Virus record (IMG/VR): IMGVR_UViG_3300019776_000564
Location: 32,001-96,000 of that record
Direction: 5' to 3' (one strand)
DNA length: 64,000 nt
Source of the DNA: a virus
Position 1 is the stretch's first letter, and every line of letters starts with the position of its first letter. The translations under genes and the position numbers were made by a program. Shown here piece by piece: positions 2,601 to 32,900 of this stretch. The notes beneath the pieces are model-generated. The model was not told the origin of the DNA, searched no databases, and was given only the letters and a program-made list of their open reading frames with translations.

Positions 2601-2761
2601 CCAGAGCAGCCCGGTTACACCGGGCTTTCTTAGCTATCTCAGAGCCGCGGTAAGCCGATCTCAGCCAATATCAACCTTGGTCCAAAAAAGGCTATAGGTG
2701 CCGAATATAGGTATAAGGCGGGCTTTGGACATATGTGGTGTAGTCCCGCGGCGCTCTCAAA

Positions 2762-2979
2762 TGAGAATCATTCTCAGGGGCGCTGCGAATCGTTCTCATT
2801 CGCGACCGCGGTTGAGACGCATTCTCAAATGCAAATGATTCTCATTCTCAAATACGAATGATTCTCATTTCACTCAAATGAGACGCATTCTCAAATGCAA
2901 ATGATTCTCATTTTCAGACAATAATCGTTCTCATTCTCAAACAAGAATTTATCTAATTCTCAAGTGCGAATGATTCTCA
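2762..2979. repeat. array of ~9 Fur-box-like 7-1-7 palindromes (TGAGAATnATTCTCA type)
   Basis: perfect TGAGAATcATTCTCA at 2762-2776; variants at 2784, 2813, 2830, 2853, 2879, 2896, 2919, 2965; 34-bp exact direct repeat 2813-2846 = 2879-2912. Confidence 0.85.
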
Positions 2980-3098
2980 ACACCTGTCTTCTCTTATTAC
3001 ATGCGCACGCGCGCAAGTAGCACAGCAAATTAGAATGAGCAAGAATTTTTTAGTTATATGCTTATGCTTTTCCGATCTATCAAATATCTAATAATCGC

Positions 3099-3126
3099 TT
3101 GCATCAAAATCTAGTTAGTCTAATAT
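3099..3126 (+). promoter_or_regulatory. sigma70-like promoter for the island operon
   Basis: TTGCAT-16 nt-TAATAT with an AT-rich upstream region. Confidence 0.5.
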
Positions 3127-3206
3127 TCAACTCAAGCGACGCAACAACGCGACGCTAACGAAGTAGCTCAATAACGAAGCTACTCACTTCTAGAGAGAGA
3201 TATAAA

Positions 3207-3761
3207 ATGACTCAAGTTAACGCTAAAGCTGTAGCTAACAAAGAAGCTTTTGAAGTTGTTGCAGCTGAGTTTGCTGCAACTAAAGAGCAAGCAAGTGCGC
3301 AAGCTGCTCAAGCTCAAAACGACGAAGAGCGTAAAGCGTTTGCAGATGCTGCTAAAACAGCGTCTACACACGAACGCTACACTAACGCACTTGCTAACAT
3401 GAGCGAAAAAGCGCTCGCAAGTTTGAACAAGTACAAAATCAACGCTACTGAACTTGCTAAACAATCGCGTGAACTGAAAAAGCGCTCTATTGCGATCATC
3501 GAAGCGATTGTAACTAAGCAACGCGTTAACGATCGCGCACTTGACGCAGTGTTACAGTACATCGTCGCTAAAGACGCTGCGAGCATGACGCTTGAGCAAG
3601 TGCGCACGCAAATGCAGCACGAAACTACTACGCAAGCGCAATACTTCAAAACTTGCGCAATCTTTTTCAACTTCGCGCAGTACTCTAAGTCTGAAAAGAC
3701 TATCAACTTCAACAAAGACGCTACTGTCTTGAAAGAGTTGATCGCGATCTACACTGTGTAA
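3207..3761 (+). CDS. Ala/Lys-rich helical protein lacking Gly/Pro/Trp (island gene 1)
   Basis: 184 aa, codon usage typical of highly expressed genes (GCT, AAC, CGT), RBS AGAGAGAGA. Confidence 0.85.
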   Translation: MTQVNAKAVANKEAFEVVAAEFAATKEQASAQAAQAQNDEERKAFADAAKTASTHERYTNALANMSEKALASLNKYKINATELAKQSRELKKRSIAIIEAIVTKQRVNDRALDAVLQYIVAKDAASMTLEQVRTQMQHETTTQAQYFKTCAIFFNFAQYSKSEKTINFNKDATVLKELIAIYTV

Positions 3762-3771
3762 CAGTGTGCGC

Positions 3772-3808
3772 AAGCGCTCTAGAACGTCTCTAGAGCGCTT
3801 TTCTTTTC
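3772..3808 (+). terminator. intrinsic terminator built without GG/CC
   Basis: AAGCGCTCTAGA-acgtc-TCTAGAGCGCTT followed by TTCTTTTC. Confidence 0.75.
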
Positions 3809-3829
3809 TAGTCTGAGTGAGACAACGCA

Positions 3830-4129
3830 ATGAACAAGCAAATCGCTGTAAACGCGCTACAGAGCGCTACAGAGCAAGCGCTGCTAGACGTGCAAGCTAG
3901 CGTGCTGCATATGCTACAGAATCGTAGTGCTGAGACGTACTATCAGCACGCACAAGCGCTGCGACATACGCTCACATACGCTAGCACTGAGTATGTGTTT
4001 AACGCTGTTAAACGACACGTGCAGCGCACTACAGCGCAACGTGTGAGCATGAAGCAAAGTATCAGTGTATTGCGCAGTGATATACGCGCTGCTATGCGTG
4101 CAGATAAGTATTCATTGTTTGCACACTAA
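3830..4129 (+). CDS. hypothetical protein lacking Gly/Pro/Trp (island gene 2)
   Basis: 99 aa ORF, GAGTGAG upstream. Confidence 0.7.
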   Translation: MNKQIAVNALQSATEQALLDVQASVLHMLQNRSAETYYQHAQALRHTLTYASTEYVFNAVKRHVQRTTAQRVSMKQSISVLRSDIRAAMRADKYSLFAH

Positions 4130-4164
4130 GTTATTTAAACTTTTCTCTTCTTACTTGTGAGTAT

Positions 4165-4497
4165 ATGCAAATGACTAAAGTATCGTTCTCTAACGTTATC
4201 GCTGACGCTTTCAGCGCTGAACAAATGCAAGATATCAGCAAAGCAGACTATAACAATCTGCTTTCTATTCTCGACATAAAGTCAAAGTATATCGAGTTTG
4301 TTAATAACGCTGAGTGCATGCACTTGCTTATTGTGCATGATGCGCGCAATAACAAGTATGAAATTGTTAGTGTGTATATCAGCGCTAACTTAGAGCATTA
4401 TCAAGTAACGTTAGTTGATACTTGCGATACACTGTCAGACGCATATAACGAACTGCATAATTCGTTGCAACTTCTACTCAGTGAGTGCGACAACTAA
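4165..4497 (+). CDS. acidic hypothetical protein lacking Gly/Pro/Trp (island gene 3)
   Basis: 110 aa ORF, GTGAG upstream. Confidence 0.7.
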   Translation: MQMTKVSFSNVIADAFSAEQMQDISKADYNNLLSILDIKSKYIEFVNNAECMHLLIVHDARNNKYEIVSVYISANLEHYQVTLVDTCDTLSDAYNELHNSLQLLLSECDN

Positions 4498-4505
4498 GTT
4501 AGTTG

Positions 4506-4555
4506 CTTACTTACACTTTTCTAAGTTGTCAAAGTCTTAGAAAAGTGTAAGTAAG
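4506..4555. repeat. perfect 20-bp inverted repeat
   Basis: CTTACTTACACTTTTCTAAG-10 nt-CTTAGAAAAGTGTAAGTAAG. Confidence 0.9.
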
Positions 4556-4599
4556 ACGTGACCCTACTCCCTTCTAAATCCCGGATACCTGCACTCTAA

Positions 4600-4779: not shown

Positions 4780-5466
4780 ATGACAGCAAAGTCCAATAAT
4801 CCAAACCAACCCGGTTCCGTGCCGCCTGCGGCGGACGCAACCTGGCTATCCAAGCTGTTTGACAGAATCAACAAGAGGCTTAACCTTTCTTCGTGCCCAG
4901 AAGACCTTGCTGCTTTCTTTGAGCAAATTAACCAAGAAGCGGAAGACCTTAAAATCCAGGAGTTCAATGAGATTTACCTGCACAAGTACGTGATGTTTAT
5001 CGCGCCTATTAAAAATCAGCGGTTAACCGGGATTGTTAACAAGATTGAGCACGCTGAAAGCGGTGTGACGTTCACTATTAACCGTGTTGTGTTGATCGCT
5101 GGTGAGCTTCTGGAAACAAACGAGGTGTTTGACAACGTACCTCTGACGGCAAGCTTTGCCGTATTCAGGAACAAAGAAAGCTGCATCAACGACATCAAAG
5201 AGACGAACAGAGCCAGAGCCAAAGCGAAAGCTGTTAGGCAAGAGGTTGAAGAGCGTCTTAAAAACGACCAAGAAATAGAGCGCAGGAAAGAAATCAAAAA
5301 GATCGCAGAGCAGATCTTGGTACAGCGTGCAGCTAACGGTGAGATTTGGGCAGTGTTTGACAATGCAGACGTTAAGGCAGTGTTTAGACAGGCAGAGAGT
5401 ATTGTTGATGGTCTTAAGAGCCTAGACCCAAGTAAACAAGACAGCGAAAACACCGACACCCGGTGA
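4780..5466 (+). CDS. hypothetical protein
   Basis: 228 aa, AAGGAG RBS, terminator at 5491-5520. Confidence 0.8.
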   Translation: MTAKSNNPNQPGSVPPAADATWLSKLFDRINKRLNLSSCPEDLAAFFEQINQEAEDLKIQEFNEIYLHKYVMFIAPIKNQRLTGIVNKIEHAESGVTFTINRVVLIAGELLETNEVFDNVPLTASFAVFRNKESCINDIKETNRARAKAKAVRQEVEERLKNDQEIERRKEIKKIAEQILVQRAANGEIWAVFDNADVKAVFRQAESIVDGLKSLDPSKQDSENTDTR

Positions 5467-5615
5467 AATGTAAGTCTCTTTCCGCTTAATAAAAGCCCAG
5501 ACCATGAATCTGGGCTTTTATTTGGCAGTCTGTACTTGCCATAGATGCAAGCGTTTAATAGACAACTAGAAACGACGCACGCTCTTTAACAGACAAAGCA
5601 GTTGATAGATAGGTA

Positions 5616-5960
5616 TTGGAGATGACTTCTATTGGAGATGTTTGGGGAGCTAAAGAAGAGCCTATAACGGTAAACGTTACCAATACTGGAGACAGCAACC
5701 CGGCAGTTGAAAGGTTTGTTGCAGACATCATGGAAGAGAAAGCTAGGCTTCTGAAAAGAATAGACGCCTTCTTTATAAATGGGCAACACGAACTGATGAG
5801 CCGCGAAATGATGCTCTACGTCATGGACGTAGGCTCAAATGACCTTGATCTTATGATTGTTGGCAATATCGAGGACATCTCGCTGACCGTCATGCGTAGA
5901 GCGGTTTACAGGCTTAACAGATTTGAAAACGAAAGGAAGATTACCTTAAGTGTCCTATAG
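5616..5960 (+). CDS. hypothetical protein
   Basis: 114 aa ORF after a GCAAGCGTTTA motif; start uncertain. Confidence 0.65.
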   Translation: MEMTSIGDVWGAKEEPITVNVTNTGDSNPAVERFVADIMEEKARLLKRIDAFFINGQHELMSREMMLYVMDVGSNDLDLMIVGNIEDISLTVMRRAVYRLNRFENERKITLSVL

Positions 5961-6171
5961 TGCGATTGAGAGTCAGGCGAGAGAGCGAAAGCTTCAAAAG
6001 ATGGAAGATTTCGAGCGTGATGCCTTGAACATTGGTGTTATCAACCAGTGTGAGTGTCACCGTAACCCGGAAGATGAAACGAAGTGGTCTATGGTTCACA
6101 TGGATCGCTTGTACAGGCTTTGGCAAGCAGGAGCGAGATACGGACAGGATCAATTGAACACTTCTAAGTAG
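5950..6171 (+). CDS. hypothetical protein
   Basis: 73 aa ORF in a tightly packed operon. Confidence 0.55.
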   Translation: MSYSAIESQARERKLQKMEDFERDALNIGVINQCECHRNPEDETKWSMVHMDRLYRLWQAGARYGQDQLNTSK

Positions 6172-6181
6172 GCGATAACCC

Positions 6182-6409
6182 ATGAACAGCGACAGCGGTT
6201 TAGATGAAAGACAGGTAAAGCCAGCACGTCTACAGTGCCTCTTTGAGCACTGTTATCTAAACACGATTAAGCACACGCCGGACTTTGCAAAAGATGAGGC
6301 CGGCAATTACATCAACCAAGAAATGCAGGATCACTATGAGCTATGGCTTAGCGGACATTGCCAGGGTGTAGTCGATCATGCTGTTTATACCGGAGAAGTG
6401 AAGCTGTGA
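6182..6409 (+). CDS. hypothetical protein
   Basis: 75 aa ORF. Confidence 0.6.
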   Translation: MNSDSGLDERQVKPARLQCLFEHCYLNTIKHTPDFAKDEAGNYINQEMQDHYELWLSGHCQGVVDHAVYTGEVKL

Positions 6410-6927
6410 CCGAAGTTAAAACAGATTGCCGTAGTTTTGATGGAATAACCGTAGGGCTGATCGACAGCATTATTACCGCAGCCCGGGTGTTGGTAGATCG
6501 TCCGCAGTGCGCCGATAGCGTACAGGAGGCGCTGAAAGACCTGCGTAGTGATACCGACGTTCGCTACCTTCTGTTGCAGGAGAACACGGATCAGAAGAAA
6601 AGCGAAAGCGCCTTTTATCTGAACCAGTTCTATAAGCGAATGTGCGCCGCGCTTGATCTGGAAGATGACCCTGTTGTCACAAGCTGGCACGAAATCATCG
6701 GGCGAGCGGAAATCAGACTGCTTCGAGCCAAAGAAAAACCCCAGTACCCGATCATTCATCGTCACGACACTATTCAGGGAATGGTGATCCAGTACGACGA
6801 GAACGTCTTTATCTGGCATACGCTGCCAACGAAGACCCGCAAAGCAGAGCAGCGCGTTGCCAGCAGTCTGAAGAAAGCTTGGGCATATCGCGCTAGCCAT
6901 CTTCGTGTAGTGAAGGAGGTGGTATGA
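6406..6927 (+). CDS. hypothetical protein
   Basis: likely GTG start at 6406 (GTGA coupling). Confidence 0.65.
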   Translation: MTEVKTDCRSFDGITVGLIDSIITAARVLVDRPQCADSVQEALKDLRSDTDVRYLLLQENTDQKKSESAFYLNQFYKRMCAALDLEDDPVVTSWHEIIGRAEIRLLRAKEKPQYPIIHRHDTIQGMVIQYDENVFIWHTLPTKTRKAEQRVASSLKKAWAYRASHLRVVKEVV

Positions 6928-7289
6928 AAAAGCTCACCGTGAAGGAGCAGATGGCTTACTCGACAATTGCACAGCTTGAGGGGAAAGTTGCAACACTCAA
7001 GAATGTCTTATCCAGCGAACTGCACCGATACAACCAGGCCAGTGACACCATCAACTATCAGGCTGCGCAGATCGAGAAGCTGGAAGAGCGGCTGAATAAG
7101 CTTCAGGCTGATGCAGATCGCTATCAGTTCCTCAAAGATCACTGCGGCGAAGTAGACTACGATGGCGGTTACACTCTGTTCTATCGGTTCCCGCAACTGA
7201 ATCGTGAACTCGACGACAAGAGTCTGCCGATTGATCACCGCTACTTCACCAATATCGACGCCTGCGTCGATCACCACAGGAATAAATAA
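6924..7289 (+). CDS. hypothetical coiled-coil protein
   Basis: 121 aa, GGAGG RBS, heptad-like N-terminal half, DADRYQFLK motif common in small phage proteins. Confidence 0.7.
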   Translation: MKKLTVKEQMAYSTIAQLEGKVATLKNVLSSELHRYNQASDTINYQAAQIEKLEERLNKLQADADRYQFLKDHCGEVDYDGGYTLFYRFPQLNRELDDKSLPIDHRYFTNIDACVDHHRNK

Positions 7290-7573
7290 TGAAGCTGTCA
7301 GAACTGAAACTGCTGGTCGACAAAGCGACTGAACGAGCTAACAAATTTGGCTTTGATCCGTTGGTCTGCACTGTGGACTTCCGCATGGGACAGACTCGGG
7401 CTAACGAATCCGGCCCGGGTGAAGAACTTCGCCACGTCAACGAAGCATGGTTGATCGAAATGCGTAGTCTGGAGCCTAGTTGCTCTAGCCTTGAGTTCGT
7501 TGCTCGCGAGGGTATGTTCGCCAATCACCCGATCTTCTACATTACTGCCGACGACACAACGGGGATTCTCTGA
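7289..7573 (+). CDS. hypothetical protein
   Basis: 94 aa, TAATG coupling. Confidence 0.65.
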   Translation: MKLSELKLLVDKATERANKFGFDPLVCTVDFRMGQTRANESGPGEELRHVNEAWLIEMRSLEPSCSSLEFVAREGMFANHPIFYITADDTTGIL

Positions 7574-8067
7574 TGCCACAAATTTTTATCCCGCCATTGG
7601 GCACTGTTATCAAACTCACCGAAGACTGGCACTTCAGCCTGTACAACGAGGGCCGGAACGAGAAGCTCCAGCAGATTACGGGCCTTTTACCACCATTTCG
7701 CGCGCTCACTGGTGGCCTGTACGAATGGCGTCAACTGAGCCTTGCTGAGCGCCGCAAACGTATCGACGAATCGGTTTGGACGCATGTGCCGGTCTGGGAC
7801 AAGGAAAGAACTGATCTCTGGGGTGGCGATTGGCATACGCCGTTTGTGTTCCGTGCCGAAACCGAGCTAAAGATCGACCGCATCTACATCCGGCAGGGTC
7901 AGAGCGATTACGACAGCGTTAGTTTCCGTACCGACTGCTGGGTGTCTAACATCGGAGATCCTTTGTTCACCAAGAAGTACGTGAACGGTCGCAAGATCAA
8001 GAGCCTGCGGTTTTGGGCGAAATTGGAAGACGTGAACAAGATAGTTGGCAACATTATTGCCCGATAA
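7573..8067 (+). CDS. conserved-looking phage hypothetical protein
   Basis: 164 aa, TGATG coupling, terminator at 8072-8111. Confidence 0.75.
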   Translation: MPQIFIPPLGTVIKLTEDWHFSLYNEGRNEKLQQITGLLPPFRALTGGLYEWRQLSLAERRKRIDESVWTHVPVWDKERTDLWGGDWHTPFVFRAETELKIDRIYIRQGQSDYDSVSFRTDCWVSNIGDPLFTKKYVNGRKIKSLRFWAKLEDVNKIVGNIIAR

Positions 8068-8184
8068 GCTAAAAAGCCCTTGAATTGTCATACGGCAGTC
8101 AAGGGCTTTTTGTTGGCTAACTTGAAAAATCTAGTAAACTCTTGCATACTTTACACATAACAGACGTACAGCGAGACACGAATA

Positions 8185-8787
8185 ATGGCTATGCCAAAGA
8201 CAATCGAAGTAGGCGGCGTTGTGATGCCTTGTCGCCAGATTAACGTCGGGACAAGCATCCTTGATGTGCCCAAAGGCATTGGTCGCAACAATCGGAACAA
8301 GTGCTGGCAGATAAAGATCATTCGCAAAGGCGAAGTTCTACTCTCCGGGCAGTTCACTGACGCTCAATATGGTGGCGCTCAGAAGTCGCTCGACGCCGCA
8401 CTCAAGCTTCTGGCCGACTCGAAGCTGGTTGAAGCGCCTAAAACACTGAAGCTAAGTGCCAGACTGTCATTATTCTGGGCTTTTAGCAGTGCGAACGTGC
8501 TGAGCTTGAGTGCAAGCTTGTACAACCAGAACACCGGCCGTAGTCACACGACCTACCTTATCAGCCACCATAAGCTGAAGTCTGGCAAGATCGACGGTCT
8601 TCATGAGAAGTTGTTAGGCGTTTACGTGAGAATGTGGGCTGAGGTGAACAACCTCAAAACGAGCGACGTCCCGGTCTTGCGAAGAATTGAGCTGGTTAAA
8701 ACCGTTGGCGACGTAATGAAGAGCAAAGAGTGGGAAGACTTCATGAGCTTGGGCGCTGAGTTAGCCGCCCAGAAAGAAAAGGCTTAA
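8185..8787 (+). CDS. putative AP2-like DNA-binding protein
   Basis: WQIKIIRKG...FTDAQYGGAQKSLDAA resembles the AP2 beta-sheet/helix motif. Confidence 0.5.
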   Translation: MAMPKTIEVGGVVMPCRQINVGTSILDVPKGIGRNNRNKCWQIKIIRKGEVLLSGQFTDAQYGGAQKSLDAALKLLADSKLVEAPKTLKLSARLSLFWAFSSANVLSLSASLYNQNTGRSHTTYLISHHKLKSGKIDGLHEKLLGVYVRMWAEVNNLKTSDVPVLRRIELVKTVGDVMKSKEWEDFMSLGAELAAQKEKA

Positions 8788-9020
8788 AGCGAATCCAGAG
8801 AAACCAGATACTTGCTTTCCAAAGCAACGTTTCCAAACCCATCAACTAAAAACCCCGCTCTCAATGCCTTGTCATCAATAATGACTGGCTGAGAAGCGGG
8901 GTTTTCTTCTTGTGCATCTGCAATCAACGAGAAAAGGTCACTCTGGCGATCACTTACGTCGATCAGTTTGAAGCCTTTACCGTCATCTACTATCAGGTAG
9001 TACATATGGCGTCTCCTCAA
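8784..9020 (-). CDS. hypothetical protein
   Basis: ORF; likely start ATG at 9005 after GAGGAG. Confidence 0.6.
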   Translation of the reverse strand: MRRRHMYYLIVDDGKGFKLIDVSDRQSDLFSLIADAQEENPASQPVIIDDKALRAGFLVDGFGNVALESKYLVSLDSL

Positions 9021-9043
9021 GAGTACGCCATTAACGTATCACA

Positions 9044-9304
9044 TCAGCCAATCTTCCGAAGATTAATACCTTCAGTATTCAGATGGTTAACGAGATCTTT
9101 GTAGCCACCGACGTGATACTGCCCGGAAGCATTGTCCATGATGATCTGGGGTAGTGTTCTTACCGGGCCGACCTTTTCTACAAGCTCTTGAGGCGTGAAC
9201 TGAGTAACCTCACTGAACTCCAACCCCTTCCGAGTCAGCAAGTCCTTTGCGTTCTTGCAGTCTGGGCAATTTGGCATGGTGTAAACGATATACAGAGCGG
9301 TCAT
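9044..9304 (-). CDS. glutaredoxin
   Basis: CPDC active site, TLPQI cis-Pro motif, HVGGY. Confidence 0.9.
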   Translation of the reverse strand: MTALYIVYTMPNCPDCKNAKDLLTRKGLEFSEVTQFTPQELVEKVGPVRTLPQIIMDNASGQYHVGGYKDLVNHLNTEGINLRKIG

Positions 9305-9382
9305 GGTGAAGTCCTATTGGTTTGAGCTAAATGTGGGTCTATGATAATGCTCGCACGATATAAAATCGACGGGGAAGTAGAT

Positions 9383-9892
9383 ATGACCACTATTGCTTAT
9401 GATGGGCGTTATTTGGCTGCCGATGGTCGTATGACCTGCGGGAATATCATCACCGGACACCAAGCGAAAAAGCTTCATCCGGTAACGATCTTTCTGCGAG
9501 GTGAAGAGCAGGAGGCAGTTGTATCTGGTAGCGGTAGCTATGCCGATATCATGAGTGCGGTTGAGTGGTTCAAACAGGGCTTTGACCCTGTAAGTTTCGA
9601 CGCTGAACAAGTCCGGCCGATGCTTGAAAAGGGTGAGGTCGACCTGCTGTTGCTGACAAGAAGCGGCGAACTGTATGGCGTAGATAGCTCGCTTCAAATC
9701 ATGCCAATGGAGTATCCGTACTCAAGCGGTTCGGGTATGCCCTTCTCGATGATGGGTATGCGCCTCGGTATGAACGCCGTTCAGTCTGTATACGAAGCCA
9801 TGAAGCATGACTGTGGCACTGGAGGTAAAGTAGCCTGCTTTGACACCGAAATCTGGGACTTCATCGACCCGGATACTGTGTGGAAGGAATAG
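9383..9892 (+). CDS. Ntn-hydrolase (HslV/proteasome beta-like) peptidase
   Basis: N-terminal MTTIAYDG..LAADGR, GSG motif, D..TGG near the C-terminus. Confidence 0.75.
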   Translation: MTTIAYDGRYLAADGRMTCGNIITGHQAKKLHPVTIFLRGEEQEAVVSGSGSYADIMSAVEWFKQGFDPVSFDAEQVRPMLEKGEVDLLLLTRSGELYGVDSSLQIMPMEYPYSSGSGMPFSMMGMRLGMNAVQSVYEAMKHDCGTGGKVACFDTEIWDFIDPDTVWKE

Positions 9893-10056
9893 CTTCTAGC
9901 GTTCCTGGCAAGCTTCTCTAAAGCACGCTAATAGCGTGCTTTTTCTTTAGCGCTATGCTGATACTCAGATATCTATAAAAGCGCTCAAAACGCACTACAG
10001 ACAGCTTCCCAATGAATAGATAATGCTCTGTTCTGAGTGCTTTTTAACAGACAACA

Positions 10057-10080
10057 AAAAGCCCTCTTTCGAGGGCTTTG
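10057..10080 (-). terminator. intrinsic terminator of the leftward operon
   Basis: on the minus strand AAAGCCCTC-gaaa-GAGGGCTTTTT. Confidence 0.8.
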
Positions 10081-10084
10081 GTTT

Positions 10085-10250
10085 CTGCTAGGAGTCGTTC
10101 CCTTCAGAAGGCAGGGTTAGAGGAGATCACAGATTTTGAGAGTTAGACGGAACCACAGCAGAATCTAACCCCTCGACAGGCTCTGCGAATTTCGTAGTGA
10201 CTCTCACGACCCACGGAGACTTGTCACCGCTACTTATTCACCTGTCGAAC
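10085..10250 (-). ncRNA. candidate structured non-coding RNA
   Basis: nested helices TCGACAGG/CCTGTCGA, GTAG..GTGAC/GTCACTAC and GGGTTAGA/TCTAACCC in a gap without a credible ORF, before a terminator. Confidence 0.4.
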
Positions 10251-29935: not shown

Positions 29936-32900
29936 ATGAGTTTGGGCCAACTGGTTCTGGATCTGAAGCTCAACGGCAACGAATTTACCGTGGGGCTGAA
30001 ATCAGCTTCAGGTCAATTGGGTCAATTCGTTGCTGGCGCTCAGCGCGCTAACAGTGTCATCAAGAGCGCTGAGCGCTCCACTTATTCGTGGGGCAATGTC
30101 ATTAGAGATACGGTTATTGGGCTTGCTCTTGCCCGTGACGCTGTACGTACTCTAAGCGCAGTTACATTTGGTTGGCAGAAGGCTATCGTCGGTGTAAACA
30201 GCGATATGGAGAGATCCATCGCTCTGATGAAAAACTTCTCGAAAGAGACCAACTCCGTAAAAGCTACATCCGAAGCCGTCTCTGACGTTAACAAGCTTCT
30301 GGAAAGAGCATCAACATCCCCATTCTCTCTCACCGCTATTACCGACGCCTTTGTTAAGCTGCGCGTTGGTGGCGTTGAGCCTGTATTTAAGTCGATGGAC
30401 ACCCTTGTGGACTCAGTGTCTGCATTTGGTGGTAGCGGCGAAAACCTTAAGCGTGCCGGCGTTGCTATTCAGCAGATGGCAGGTAAGGGCGTTGTCTCTA
30501 TGGAAGAGCTTCGTCAGCAACTTGGTGAAGCTGTCCCGACTGCAATTAACGCAATGGCTGCCGGCCTTGGTACAACTTACTCGAAACTGGTTAAAGAGAT
30601 TAGCCAGGGTAAAGTTCTATCTAAGCCAGCGATCATCGCAATGATGCAACAGATGGAACTCCAATTTAAGGGTTCCGCCGCAAACATGATGAACACATGG
30701 GGCGGCGCTGTTGCTCAGTTTGAAACTGATGCCAAGAAACTAGCCGTAGCATTCGGTGGTCTTGGTAAAGATGGCTACGAAGAAGGCGGCTATCTAAAGA
30801 CGATCACGAAGGAACTCAAAGGCCTTAACGAGGTTCTTTCAGACCCGGAGATCATCAACAGCGCCAGAGATATCGGTAAGGCTGTTGGTGAGATGATCAC
30901 AAGCCTTGCAAACGGTACAAAATGGGTTATTGCTCACCGTGAGGCGATCTATGAGTGGGGTAAGGCTCTTCTTTATCTCTGGGCTGCGTACAAAGGCGCA
31001 TCGATTGTAAGTGGGGTTCTGAAGACTGCTGGCGCAGCAACAGAAACTCTTGCAATGAAACTCATTCAGATGAGGATGCAAGGTCAGAGCGTAACGACCG
31101 CGATGGGCGGTATGGTTAGCTCTATGAGTGGCTGGAACAGCACAGCGGCTATTGCAGCGGGTGGCGCTACAAGAATCGCAACCGGGTCTAACGCTGCCGG
31201 CGTAGCCGTTCGGGCGCTTGGTGGCGCCATTGGCATACTCGCAGGCCCAATCGGTCTTGCCGCAACGCTCGCTGTCAGCCTTGGTATGGCTTACTTTGAG
31301 TCAAAAAGAGGCGCGGATGCAGCTAGAGATGCCGTTCTGGGCCTCAATGGCGCTCTGACTGATTACAACCAGCTTTCGATTCTTGGTCAGGCCAGAAACG
31401 ATAAGAGAAAGTCTTATGAAGAGCTGTACGGCCCGGAAGCTGAAAAGAACCTTGCTTACCAAAGTAAGGAATACGTAGAGCAGTACAAGAAGGAAAAAGC
31501 GGCAGCGAAAGCTGACCTTGATAAGACCGATAGCGATCTGCTTAAGGCTCGCCTGAACGTTGCTCGGACTTATGCAAATACTGAGGCTCAAGGTGTTATC
31601 TCGGCAAACTCTGCCGCAATCGCTGAGATCTCCAAGTCATACAAAATTGACTCTGCTGCCATCTATGAGCAGTTCGAGGAAGAGGCCAAGAAGAGCGGCA
31701 AGGCTTTCGACGAGGCCGGTTACAAGAATGCCTTGAAGCAACGAGGCAGCATCAAGTACCAAGAAGAGATTGATACCTACGTAGAGGCAAGAAACCAAGC
31801 TATCGAGGCTAAAAACAAGCTTGTAGCGGAGAACACGGATTCAAAAGGAAGGCTGATTGTTGATGATGAAAAACTCAAGCAGCTTGAAACCGCAAAGACT
31901 CTGATCTCCAGCTTCGATGAGAAAATCGCAGATACCAAACTCTCAATGCAGGAGCTTGGTAAATATGATCTCGCCTCTACTCTTGTAAATGGCCCAGGCG
32001 GTAAGCCAGCAAAAGCTCAGTTCGATGCAATGACCATGTACGTAGATGGTCTGAGAAAGTCTGTAGCTGGTCTTGGCGCAAAGATTGAGGAAGAGAACCC
32101 CTACCTTGCTCAGCTTGATGCAACCGTTGAAAGTCTTGGCGGCAAGAAGCTTCCAAACTTCGATGCAGTTTACGCATCCGGCGTTAAGCTTGCGGAACAG
32201 CGTTGGGCGCAAGAGAAGGCTCAAAAGGCTCTTACCTCTGCCAACAATGAATATAAGGATTCGATGGAGCGAATCGGACAGATTCAGAGGCTTATGAGCG
32301 GTAAGCTCAACAAGGCTGAAAATCTCAATCCATGGGAAAAGGCTTCTGCTGACGCAATCAGGTACGAAGACGAGCTTAATGATCTCGTCAAGAAGATGGA
32401 TGACGCAAGAAAGCAGGCTGAATCCGCTGCTGGTAGCATGGGTCAAGGTCAGCTTGAAAAGCTTGCTGAGAAGGCAAGACTTGCTGAGAAGGCTGTAGAT
32501 GACACCAGAGAAACACTTGAGAAGCTAAAGGTCACTGATACAGGCAAGGCTATGAAAAGCACTGCCGACGCCATCAATGACGCTCTTCTCAGTACCTCTG
32601 ATAGAGCAAAGGCCGAGTACGACCGCCAAACTGAGTGGGCTGATCAGTTTTACGCAAACCATAAAGATCAGTTGGAAAAAGACTCTGAGGCGTATGCTCA
32701 GTATTCCGAGTTTAGAAGGTCGCTTGACGCTCAGTATGCTCGGGAAAGCGAATCCGGGTTAGACCAATGGATTCGTCAAAACAGAGATGCAACCGAGCAG
32801 TATAAGAGCCTTTGGGGCTCTGCAATGAACAAGTTCACCGACACTCTTACCGATGCTCTGGTTGAGGGTAAGATGCAGTTTGGTGATTTTGTTAAGTACG

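Follow-up and report, generated by a model that had tools for sequence, protein, structure and literature searches.

Among the closest described counterparts of the locus reported here are the clustered Fur operators of E. coli, in which overlapping sites follow one another at offsets of 3 or 6 bp (Chen et al. 2007, PMC2189734). These clusters reach at most ∼142 bases, and 83% of them overlap a promoter (PMC2189734). Sites for host master regulators are also known from phage DNA and include the Spo0A boxes of the virulent phages phi29 and Nf (PMC2731898) and the CtrA sites of alphaproteobacterial phages (PMC9437464). In both cases, clusters of sites for a host global regulator lie near early promoters or genome landmarks, and a lytic phage reads the state of its host. 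Temperate phages are known to carry Fur boxes themselves; in lambdoid phages, for instance, a single operator in front of sitABCD serves one iron-related cargo operon (PMC6969025). A counterpart of a different kind is the injection stop signal (iss) of phage T5, whose "Repeat Region 3" is composed of copies of direct repeat C and palindromes E–J (Davison, bioRxiv 10.1101/866236). The function of the T5 repeats was called impossible to guess in that work, where Fur goes unmentioned, and a 2026 T5 preprint assigns no function to the iss repeats. In the literature that we searched, no paper connects Fur with the iss repeats of T5 or with arrays in virulent phages.

The array described here shares with the E. 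coli clusters the 7-1-7/hexamer architecture, the 6-bp offset, and a sequence like that of the ryhB, gpmA, fepA-fes, entC, and fecI operators. It differs from them in that it spans 225 bp with at least 10 units, resides in a virulent-type genome, does not precede an iron gene, and does not overlap a -35/-10 region. As compared to the Spo0A and CtrA sites, the regulator (Fur) and the signal (iron) are different and the copy number is much higher, and as compared to the sitABCD type, an array in front of an early unit stands in place of the single operator. New in this analysis are a case of such an array outside the T5 family, together with a wider survey across IMG/VR, the origin of the array from one or two ancestral sites that were duplicated in tandem, and its position beside a CC/GG-free early unit. 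Our working hypothesis, which we hold tentatively and at a little less than even confidence, is that the array serves as a landing pad for host Fur and that the upstream edge of this unit is thereby closed off by a barrier or gate, with titration of Fur as a secondary effect. If Fur binds, many unrelated virulent phages would have independently built, where their earliest genes begin or end, oversized pads for a single regulator of the host, and would have gained a direct readout of host iron as well as a means to sequester a global repressor.

Architecture of the array and its locus

The window analyzed here is a stretch of 64,000 nt that corresponds to bases 32001–96000 of a 108,018-bp single-contig virus record. 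The record is an IMG/VR entry rated 100% complete. It is a circular assembly whose ends overlap by 90 nt, and the phage genes lie almost exclusively on the + strand. The features of the locus, in window positions, are as follows.

2607–2631, + strand: terminator-like GC hairpin with a T-rich tail, read from the sequence, which closes the upstream small-ORF operon (last ORF 2262–2600)
2641–2811, no strand assigned: non-coding element, conserved, that carries TATAGG repeats and three motifs of the GCCGCGG type (CCGCGG at 2645, 2746, and 2806)
2755–2979, + strand: Fur-box-like array of 10 direct-repeat units of ∼22 nt each, non-coding, 225 bp
2762, 2784, 2813, 2830, 2853, 2879, 2896, 2919, 2942 (degenerate), and 2965: core starts
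2836 (with 2830) and 2902 (with 2896): extra overlapping cores at a 6-bp offset
2813–2912, + strand: recent tandem duplication of ∼3 units with a 66-bp period, in which an exact 34-nt repeat occurs (2813–2846 = 2879–2912)
3099–3126, + strand: sigma-70-like putative promoter of the CC/GG-free operon (TTGCAT, 16-nt spacer, TAATAT)
3207–4497, + strand: CC/GG-free operon of three genes (ORFs 3207–3761, 3830–4129, and 4165–4497)
4508–4556, + strand: hairpin with a perfect 20-bp stem, read from the sequence, which closes the CC/GG-free unit

The original prediction, made from the sequence alone, described a dense array of about nine Fur-box-like operators directly upstream of a GG/CC-free operon, containing a perfect palindrome, a set of variants of it, and a 34-bp segment that recurs exactly at a distance of 66 bp. 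Each of these elements was found where it had been placed, and the units number 10. The perfect palindrome is 15 bp long (2762–2776), the listed variants are all present, and both copies of the 34-bp repeat are intact. Each unit contains one 7-1-7 Fur-box-like core; the units are spaced 17–29 bp apart, mostly 23 bp, and Tandem Repeats Finder returned a 23-bp period with 7.1 copies. Across the 108,018-bp genome, sites within two mismatches of the array core fall exclusively within the array, and a weight matrix built from the array scores its units at 17–28 bits and all positions elsewhere in the genome at less than 16 bits. The density of the array is far above the chance expectation. Downstream, GG and CC are absent from 3072–4562, a stretch that takes in the start of the first operon gene at 3207, and just two occurrences fall within 2810–4562.

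A run of palindromes of this kind could act as a structured RNA or as a single-stranded DNA hairpin element, and the RNA fold z-score of -6.0 versus shuffles speaks in its favor. Any palindrome array yields such a z-score, however, and single hairpins would have 1-nt loops. A search of Rfam returned no family and a chance-level hit only, and a terminator lies just upstream, with no evident promoter before the array. We consider a role as structured nucleic acid to be very improbable.

The putative promoter at 3099–3126 is conserved in phage nickie and its relatives (see below), and its assignment relies on this conservation because the element falls below a strict consensus scan. It begins 120 bp past the last array unit, which ends at 2979, and the array overlaps neither its -35 nor its -10 element. 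This distance counts against the Fur landing pad as well, and it makes a classical operator role unlikely. The earlier suggestion that the array provides iron-dependent operator control of the island is weakened accordingly.

Scans with Pfam and PHROG of 10 flanking ORFs, including the three operon genes, returned no family, and no Fur-family gene (PF01475) is encoded by the phage. The flank at 2751–3250 has a GC content of 38–39%. The hairpin at 2607–2631 was not called by a strict scan; an equivalent is found in nickie, ZY21, and Nican01. Between the hairpin at 4508–4556 and the next gene at 4780, a 14-nt repeat occurs three times (∼4601, 4638, and 4671). The first two array units are interleaved with the last two GCCGCGG-type motifs. 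A second cluster, with seven CCGCGG motifs, lies ∼4 kb upstream at genome positions 30711–31144 (∼1.3–0.85 kb before the window start), and a 19-nt exact repeat links the clusters of three and seven copies. The two clusters flank ∼3.5 kb of small, variable ORFs and are both also present in nickie and its relatives, in a layout reminiscent of T5 repeat regions 2 and 3. Separately, both the start and the end of the contig (genome positions 1–120 and 107929–108018) lie inside a ribonucleotide reductase-like gene, based on a motif read by eye, which could bear on any link to iron.

Resemblance to E. coli Fur operators

The operators used for comparison were those of E. coli; the phage record is metagenome-derived, and its host may differ. 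As compared to the 7-1-7 Fur consensus TGATAATNATTATCA, the array cores carry 2–4 mismatches out of 14, most of which are symmetric and change GATAAT to GAGAAT or GCGAAT. The preference for GAGAAT/GCGAAT hexamers over GATAAT counts against Fur, as it could reflect a different binder. The units at 2830–2850 and 2896–2916 match the 21-bp double Fur box at 17 of 21 positions, and the overlapping site pairs 2830/2836 and 2896/2902 have a 6-bp offset, one of the two found in real Fur clusters.

The likeness extends to individual E. coli operators. A weight matrix was derived from the ten phage units alone and scanned over 18 kb of E. coli ent/fep DNA. The top four hits were at fepA-fes, fepB-entC (two hits), and fepD-entS, all within three Fur-controlled intergenic regions that make up ∼4% of the scanned DNA, and none of 500 column-shuffled matrices reproduced this result. 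A pattern derived from the array, with two mismatches allowed, gave 77 hits in MG1655 versus 23 for the reversed control. The matches include the promoters of gpmA (with no mismatch), ryhB, yoeA, sufA, sodA, mntH, bfd, fhuF, fhuE, fecA, and fecI. Regulation of these genes by Fur is well established. Three matches with at most one mismatch lie outside the classical targets, in the yjgL coding region, at ylcI-nohD, and at ybeQ. The array itself gave no blastn match among 5,426 E. coli genomes. By these measures, the array sequence cannot be distinguished from known E. coli Fur operators.

Taken together, the consensus, matrix, and pattern tests uphold in silico the Fur-box identity that had been proposed for the array, while none of the three roles proposed along with it (a sponge, iron control, or a roadblock) was demonstrated. 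We infer both that host Fur probably binds the array and what such binding would do. The consensus match, the 6-bp offset, and the E. coli matrix and pattern results are counted in favor of the Fur landing pad. Also counted in its favor are the size of the array, which at 225 bp exceeds the largest E. coli Fur cluster (∼142 bases), and the combination of no Fur gene, no family among the 10 flanking ORFs, and no homologues of T5 pre-early proteins. ArgR, IHF, Zur, MntR, LexA, and CRP/FNR were considered as binders and rejected, since, judged by their consensus sequences, the half-site spacing or sequence does not fit.

Two observations from the MG1655 genome may be recorded here. In the DLP12 prophage, a near-perfect Fur core (580592–580610) precedes nohD by ∼225 bp, and a similar site is located at 1636591–1636609.

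Lineage-specific expansion and occurrence in unrelated phages

The structural genes of the phage share 75–79% nucleotide identity with the P. syringae Nickieviruses nickie, ZY21, phiK7B1, Nican01, and hairong. The first protein of the CC/GG-free operon is 81–87% identical in four Nickieviruses and 54% identical in hairong. When this protein was used to search for further relatives, nickie alone was recovered in IMG/VR and none in metagenome contigs. The syntenic regions of the Nickieviruses retain the terminator, the GCCGCGG motifs, and the promoter, and the Fur-like array is absent from them. At the orthologous spot they carry 0–4 degenerate, GC-richer sites of the same geometry, with none in nickie. 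In the sites of ZY21, Nican01, and hairong, the 7-1-7 geometry is retained along with the outer bases but the inner bases are not Fur-like, and these GC-rich sites of the P. syringae relatives are poor Fur boxes. Two units of the array can be traced to such sites.

2784–2827, + strand: ancestral pair of units (2 and 3), whose orthologues in Nican01 and ZY21 are two sites with a separation of 30 bp

Unit 2 is identical to the first Nican01 site at 13 of 15 positions, with flanks that can be aligned by eye, and the second Nican01 site is a GC-rich palindrome. Because the relatives have 0–4 degenerate copies, the array is a lineage-specific, AT-rich tandem expansion of one or two ancestral sites. 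The absence of the array from the relatives indicates that it is dispensable for the basic function of the locus, and a lineage-specific expansion would be in keeping with an accessory, host-specific role. Since nickie has no such site and the orthologues elsewhere are GC-rich and poor as Fur boxes, the array need not descend from a Fur site. In the P. syringae relatives, a tiny minus-strand ORF of 30–63 aa separates the degenerate sites from the early promoters (2751–2942, 1002–1094, 1007–1096, and 1012–1167 in extracts L002, L142, L143, and L144, respectively). This ORF is missing from the present phage, and the expanded array is found in its place.

The divergence of the orthologous sites bears on a second explanation, in which the array consists of operators or iterons for a phage-encoded protein, either a product of the CC/GG-free operon or a replication initiator, and its likeness to Fur boxes is incidental or secondary. 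The GC-rich sites in ZY21, Nican01, and hairong, with their different inner bases, speak for such a system, and the binder could be among the neighboring genes, all of which are without a known family. In addition, the ∼17–22-bp direct repeats, spaced ∼22–23 bp apart and located beside DNA of 38–39% GC, resemble an iteron origin. Against an origin, DnaA boxes are absent nearby. It is also difficult to reconcile a binder encoded by the operon with a first operon protein that remains 81–87% identical where the sites differ strongly in both sequence and number. The same motif occurs, moreover, in unrelated phages that share no neighboring proteins, and GC-rich phages keep the AT-rich motif exactly. 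On balance, we regard a phage-encoded binder as unlikely, though it deserves consideration alongside the Fur landing pad.

The evidence from unrelated phages comes from a scan of IMG/VR with a two-site pattern followed by a matrix filter, in which loci were counted when at least four matrix hits fell within 300–350 bp. The two-site pattern is weakly specific, and by our estimate chance alone would give hundreds of hits to it. The counted loci comprise arrays of 4–9 sites in at least 14 further IMG/VR contigs. Except for one 87-nt match, these contigs have no DNA similarity to T5 or to this phage, and they share no flanking proteins with it. Their GC content ranges from 38 to 61%, and those of 53–61% GC keep the AT-rich motif and the exact three-hexamer Fur architecture. 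A motif that is common to phages without shared neighbors and that stays fixed in GC-rich genomes argues for recognition by a conserved host protein. Fur is the sole candidate host protein whose known sites match, as judged by sequence.

The genomic contexts of the IMG/VR arrays are varied. Some arrays lie in divergent promoter regions, others immediately before consensus promoters, and those of two contigs adjoin terminase genes. In T5 and in phi92-like phages, the array is located between convergent genes, which makes a single shared role in transcription doubtful. In one IMG/VR contig (L060), an array of at least five sites precedes two packaging genes, one small-terminase-like and the other a lambda-type large terminase, and Fur sites beside packaging genes, as in DLP12 and L060, may recur as a theme. 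In the phi92-like phages outra (1730–2330 of extract L018) and KP13-26 (1760–2330 of extract L019), the array region is annotated as empty. The array there lies between a consensus promoter that drives a short, GC-rich, structured-looking segment and 3–4 AT-rich repeats of ∼60 bp.

Comparison with the T5 injection stop signal and possible roles of the array

A blastn search with the array returned non-coding DNA of T5-like phages (phiR2-01, AAS21, and KEY) and of phi92/phAPEC8-like myoviruses. In T5 itself (NC_005859), Fur-like units are located at 9522–9716, inside the annotated iss (9140–10149), between the DnaA-box repeats and nine GTGCAAATCCGAC repeats, and this T5 block matches 637 phage records. 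The T5 units bracket the estimated shear point of first-step transfer at ∼9618. Common to the T5 iss and this phage is a unit of roughly AAATGCGAATGATTCTCATTC, and an array of the T5-type AAATG-GAAT-ATTCTCATT unit is present here. Both have 7–10 direct copies in a long non-coding region that borders the earliest-expressed genes, with a second type of repeat adjoining.

The two loci differ in several respects. The T5 iss has paired DnaA boxes in inverted repeats, which are absent near the array of this phage; the window contains two DnaA-box matches (44495 and 52590), versus ∼4.9 expected by chance, and neither is near the array. The downstream GTGCAAATCCGAC repeats of the T5 type were not found near the array, and the T5 pre-early proteins A1, A2, and dmp gave no tblastn hit at E ≤ 0.1 against the whole phage. 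In T5 the array lies between convergent units, whereas here a promoter and operon of the same direction come after it. The T5 iss is located ∼8% from the left end, inside a long terminal repeat; the present phage is represented by a circular assembly with the 90-nt overlap, and is not known to have a terminal repeat.

These comparisons bear directly on a role in staged DNA injection, which the original prediction had raised as a host-protein-bound roadblock. The suggestion gains from the presence of the array module inside the T5 iss and loses from the absence here of the other iss components and of A1/A2. In its broader form, the array would belong to a signal that halts or marks DNA during staged entry or packaging, with the CC/GG-free segment 2812–4562 transferred first. 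Several features are in line with such a role, including the position of the T5 array around the shear point, the left edge of the CC/GG-free zone, which coincides with the array, the arrays beside terminase genes in two IMG/VR contigs, and the two clusters of another repeat around ∼3.5 kb of small ORFs, as in T5 repeat regions 2 and 3. On the other hand, close relatives retain the locus with 0–4 weak sites, A1/A2 homologues, DnaA boxes, and GTGCAAATCCGAC repeats are lacking, and a circular assembly with a 90-nt overlap does not give the physical ends of the genome. We also know of no mechanism by which a cytoplasmic protein halts DNA entry. We therefore rate a stop or landmark for entry or packaging as improbable. 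A bolder version joins this idea to Fur. Fur arrays would be a general phage device, iron-loaded host Fur would hold the incoming DNA at the T5 iss, the CC/GG-free segment 2812–4562, being without restriction targets, would be the first-transferred segment here, and entry or commitment to infection would be gated by iron. We consider this a long shot.

Another proposed role is that of a sponge, in which the replicating phage DNA titrates Fur and derepresses iron uptake or iron-sparing, for example to feed the phage ribonucleotide reductase. The contig starts inside a ribonucleotide reductase-like gene, as read by eye, and the array offers 10–12 sites per genome copy, a number recently raised by tandem duplication. 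The array also exceeds any host operator in size and overlaps no promoter. An E. coli cell contains ∼5,000–10,000 Fur monomers, which would be matched by roughly 100–200 phage genomes. The proposal is thus possible quantitatively, but it does not extend to T5, which destroys host DNA early; a sponge is impossible for the T5 module, as T5 degrades host DNA within minutes. New iron-uptake proteins would also act slowly relative to a lytic cycle, and the array is present in single copy at a fixed, conserved position beside other cis elements, which suggests a local role. We find it improbable that a sponge is the primary function.

For the Fur landing pad that we tentatively prefer, the following model can be drawn. 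Iron-loaded host Fur would coat the ∼225 bp continuously with 10–12 dimers and create a nucleoprotein block, flanked on one side by the terminator of the upstream operon and on the other by the conserved early promoter. As a barrier or gate, this block would depend on the iron status of the host and could insulate the early unit from upstream read-through, from spreading silencing proteins, or from DNA translocation. As genome copies accumulate they would soak up Fur, making titration an unavoidable consequence of replication. The array is the same module as the block of palindromes and direct repeat C copies in the T5 iss.

It should be noted that T5 carries a further site of this type. At 233–247, ∼230 bp from the left end and in the 3′ part of dmp, the T5 genome contains a perfect canonical 7-1-7 Fur core, for which the chance expectation is ∼1e-4 per 12 kb.
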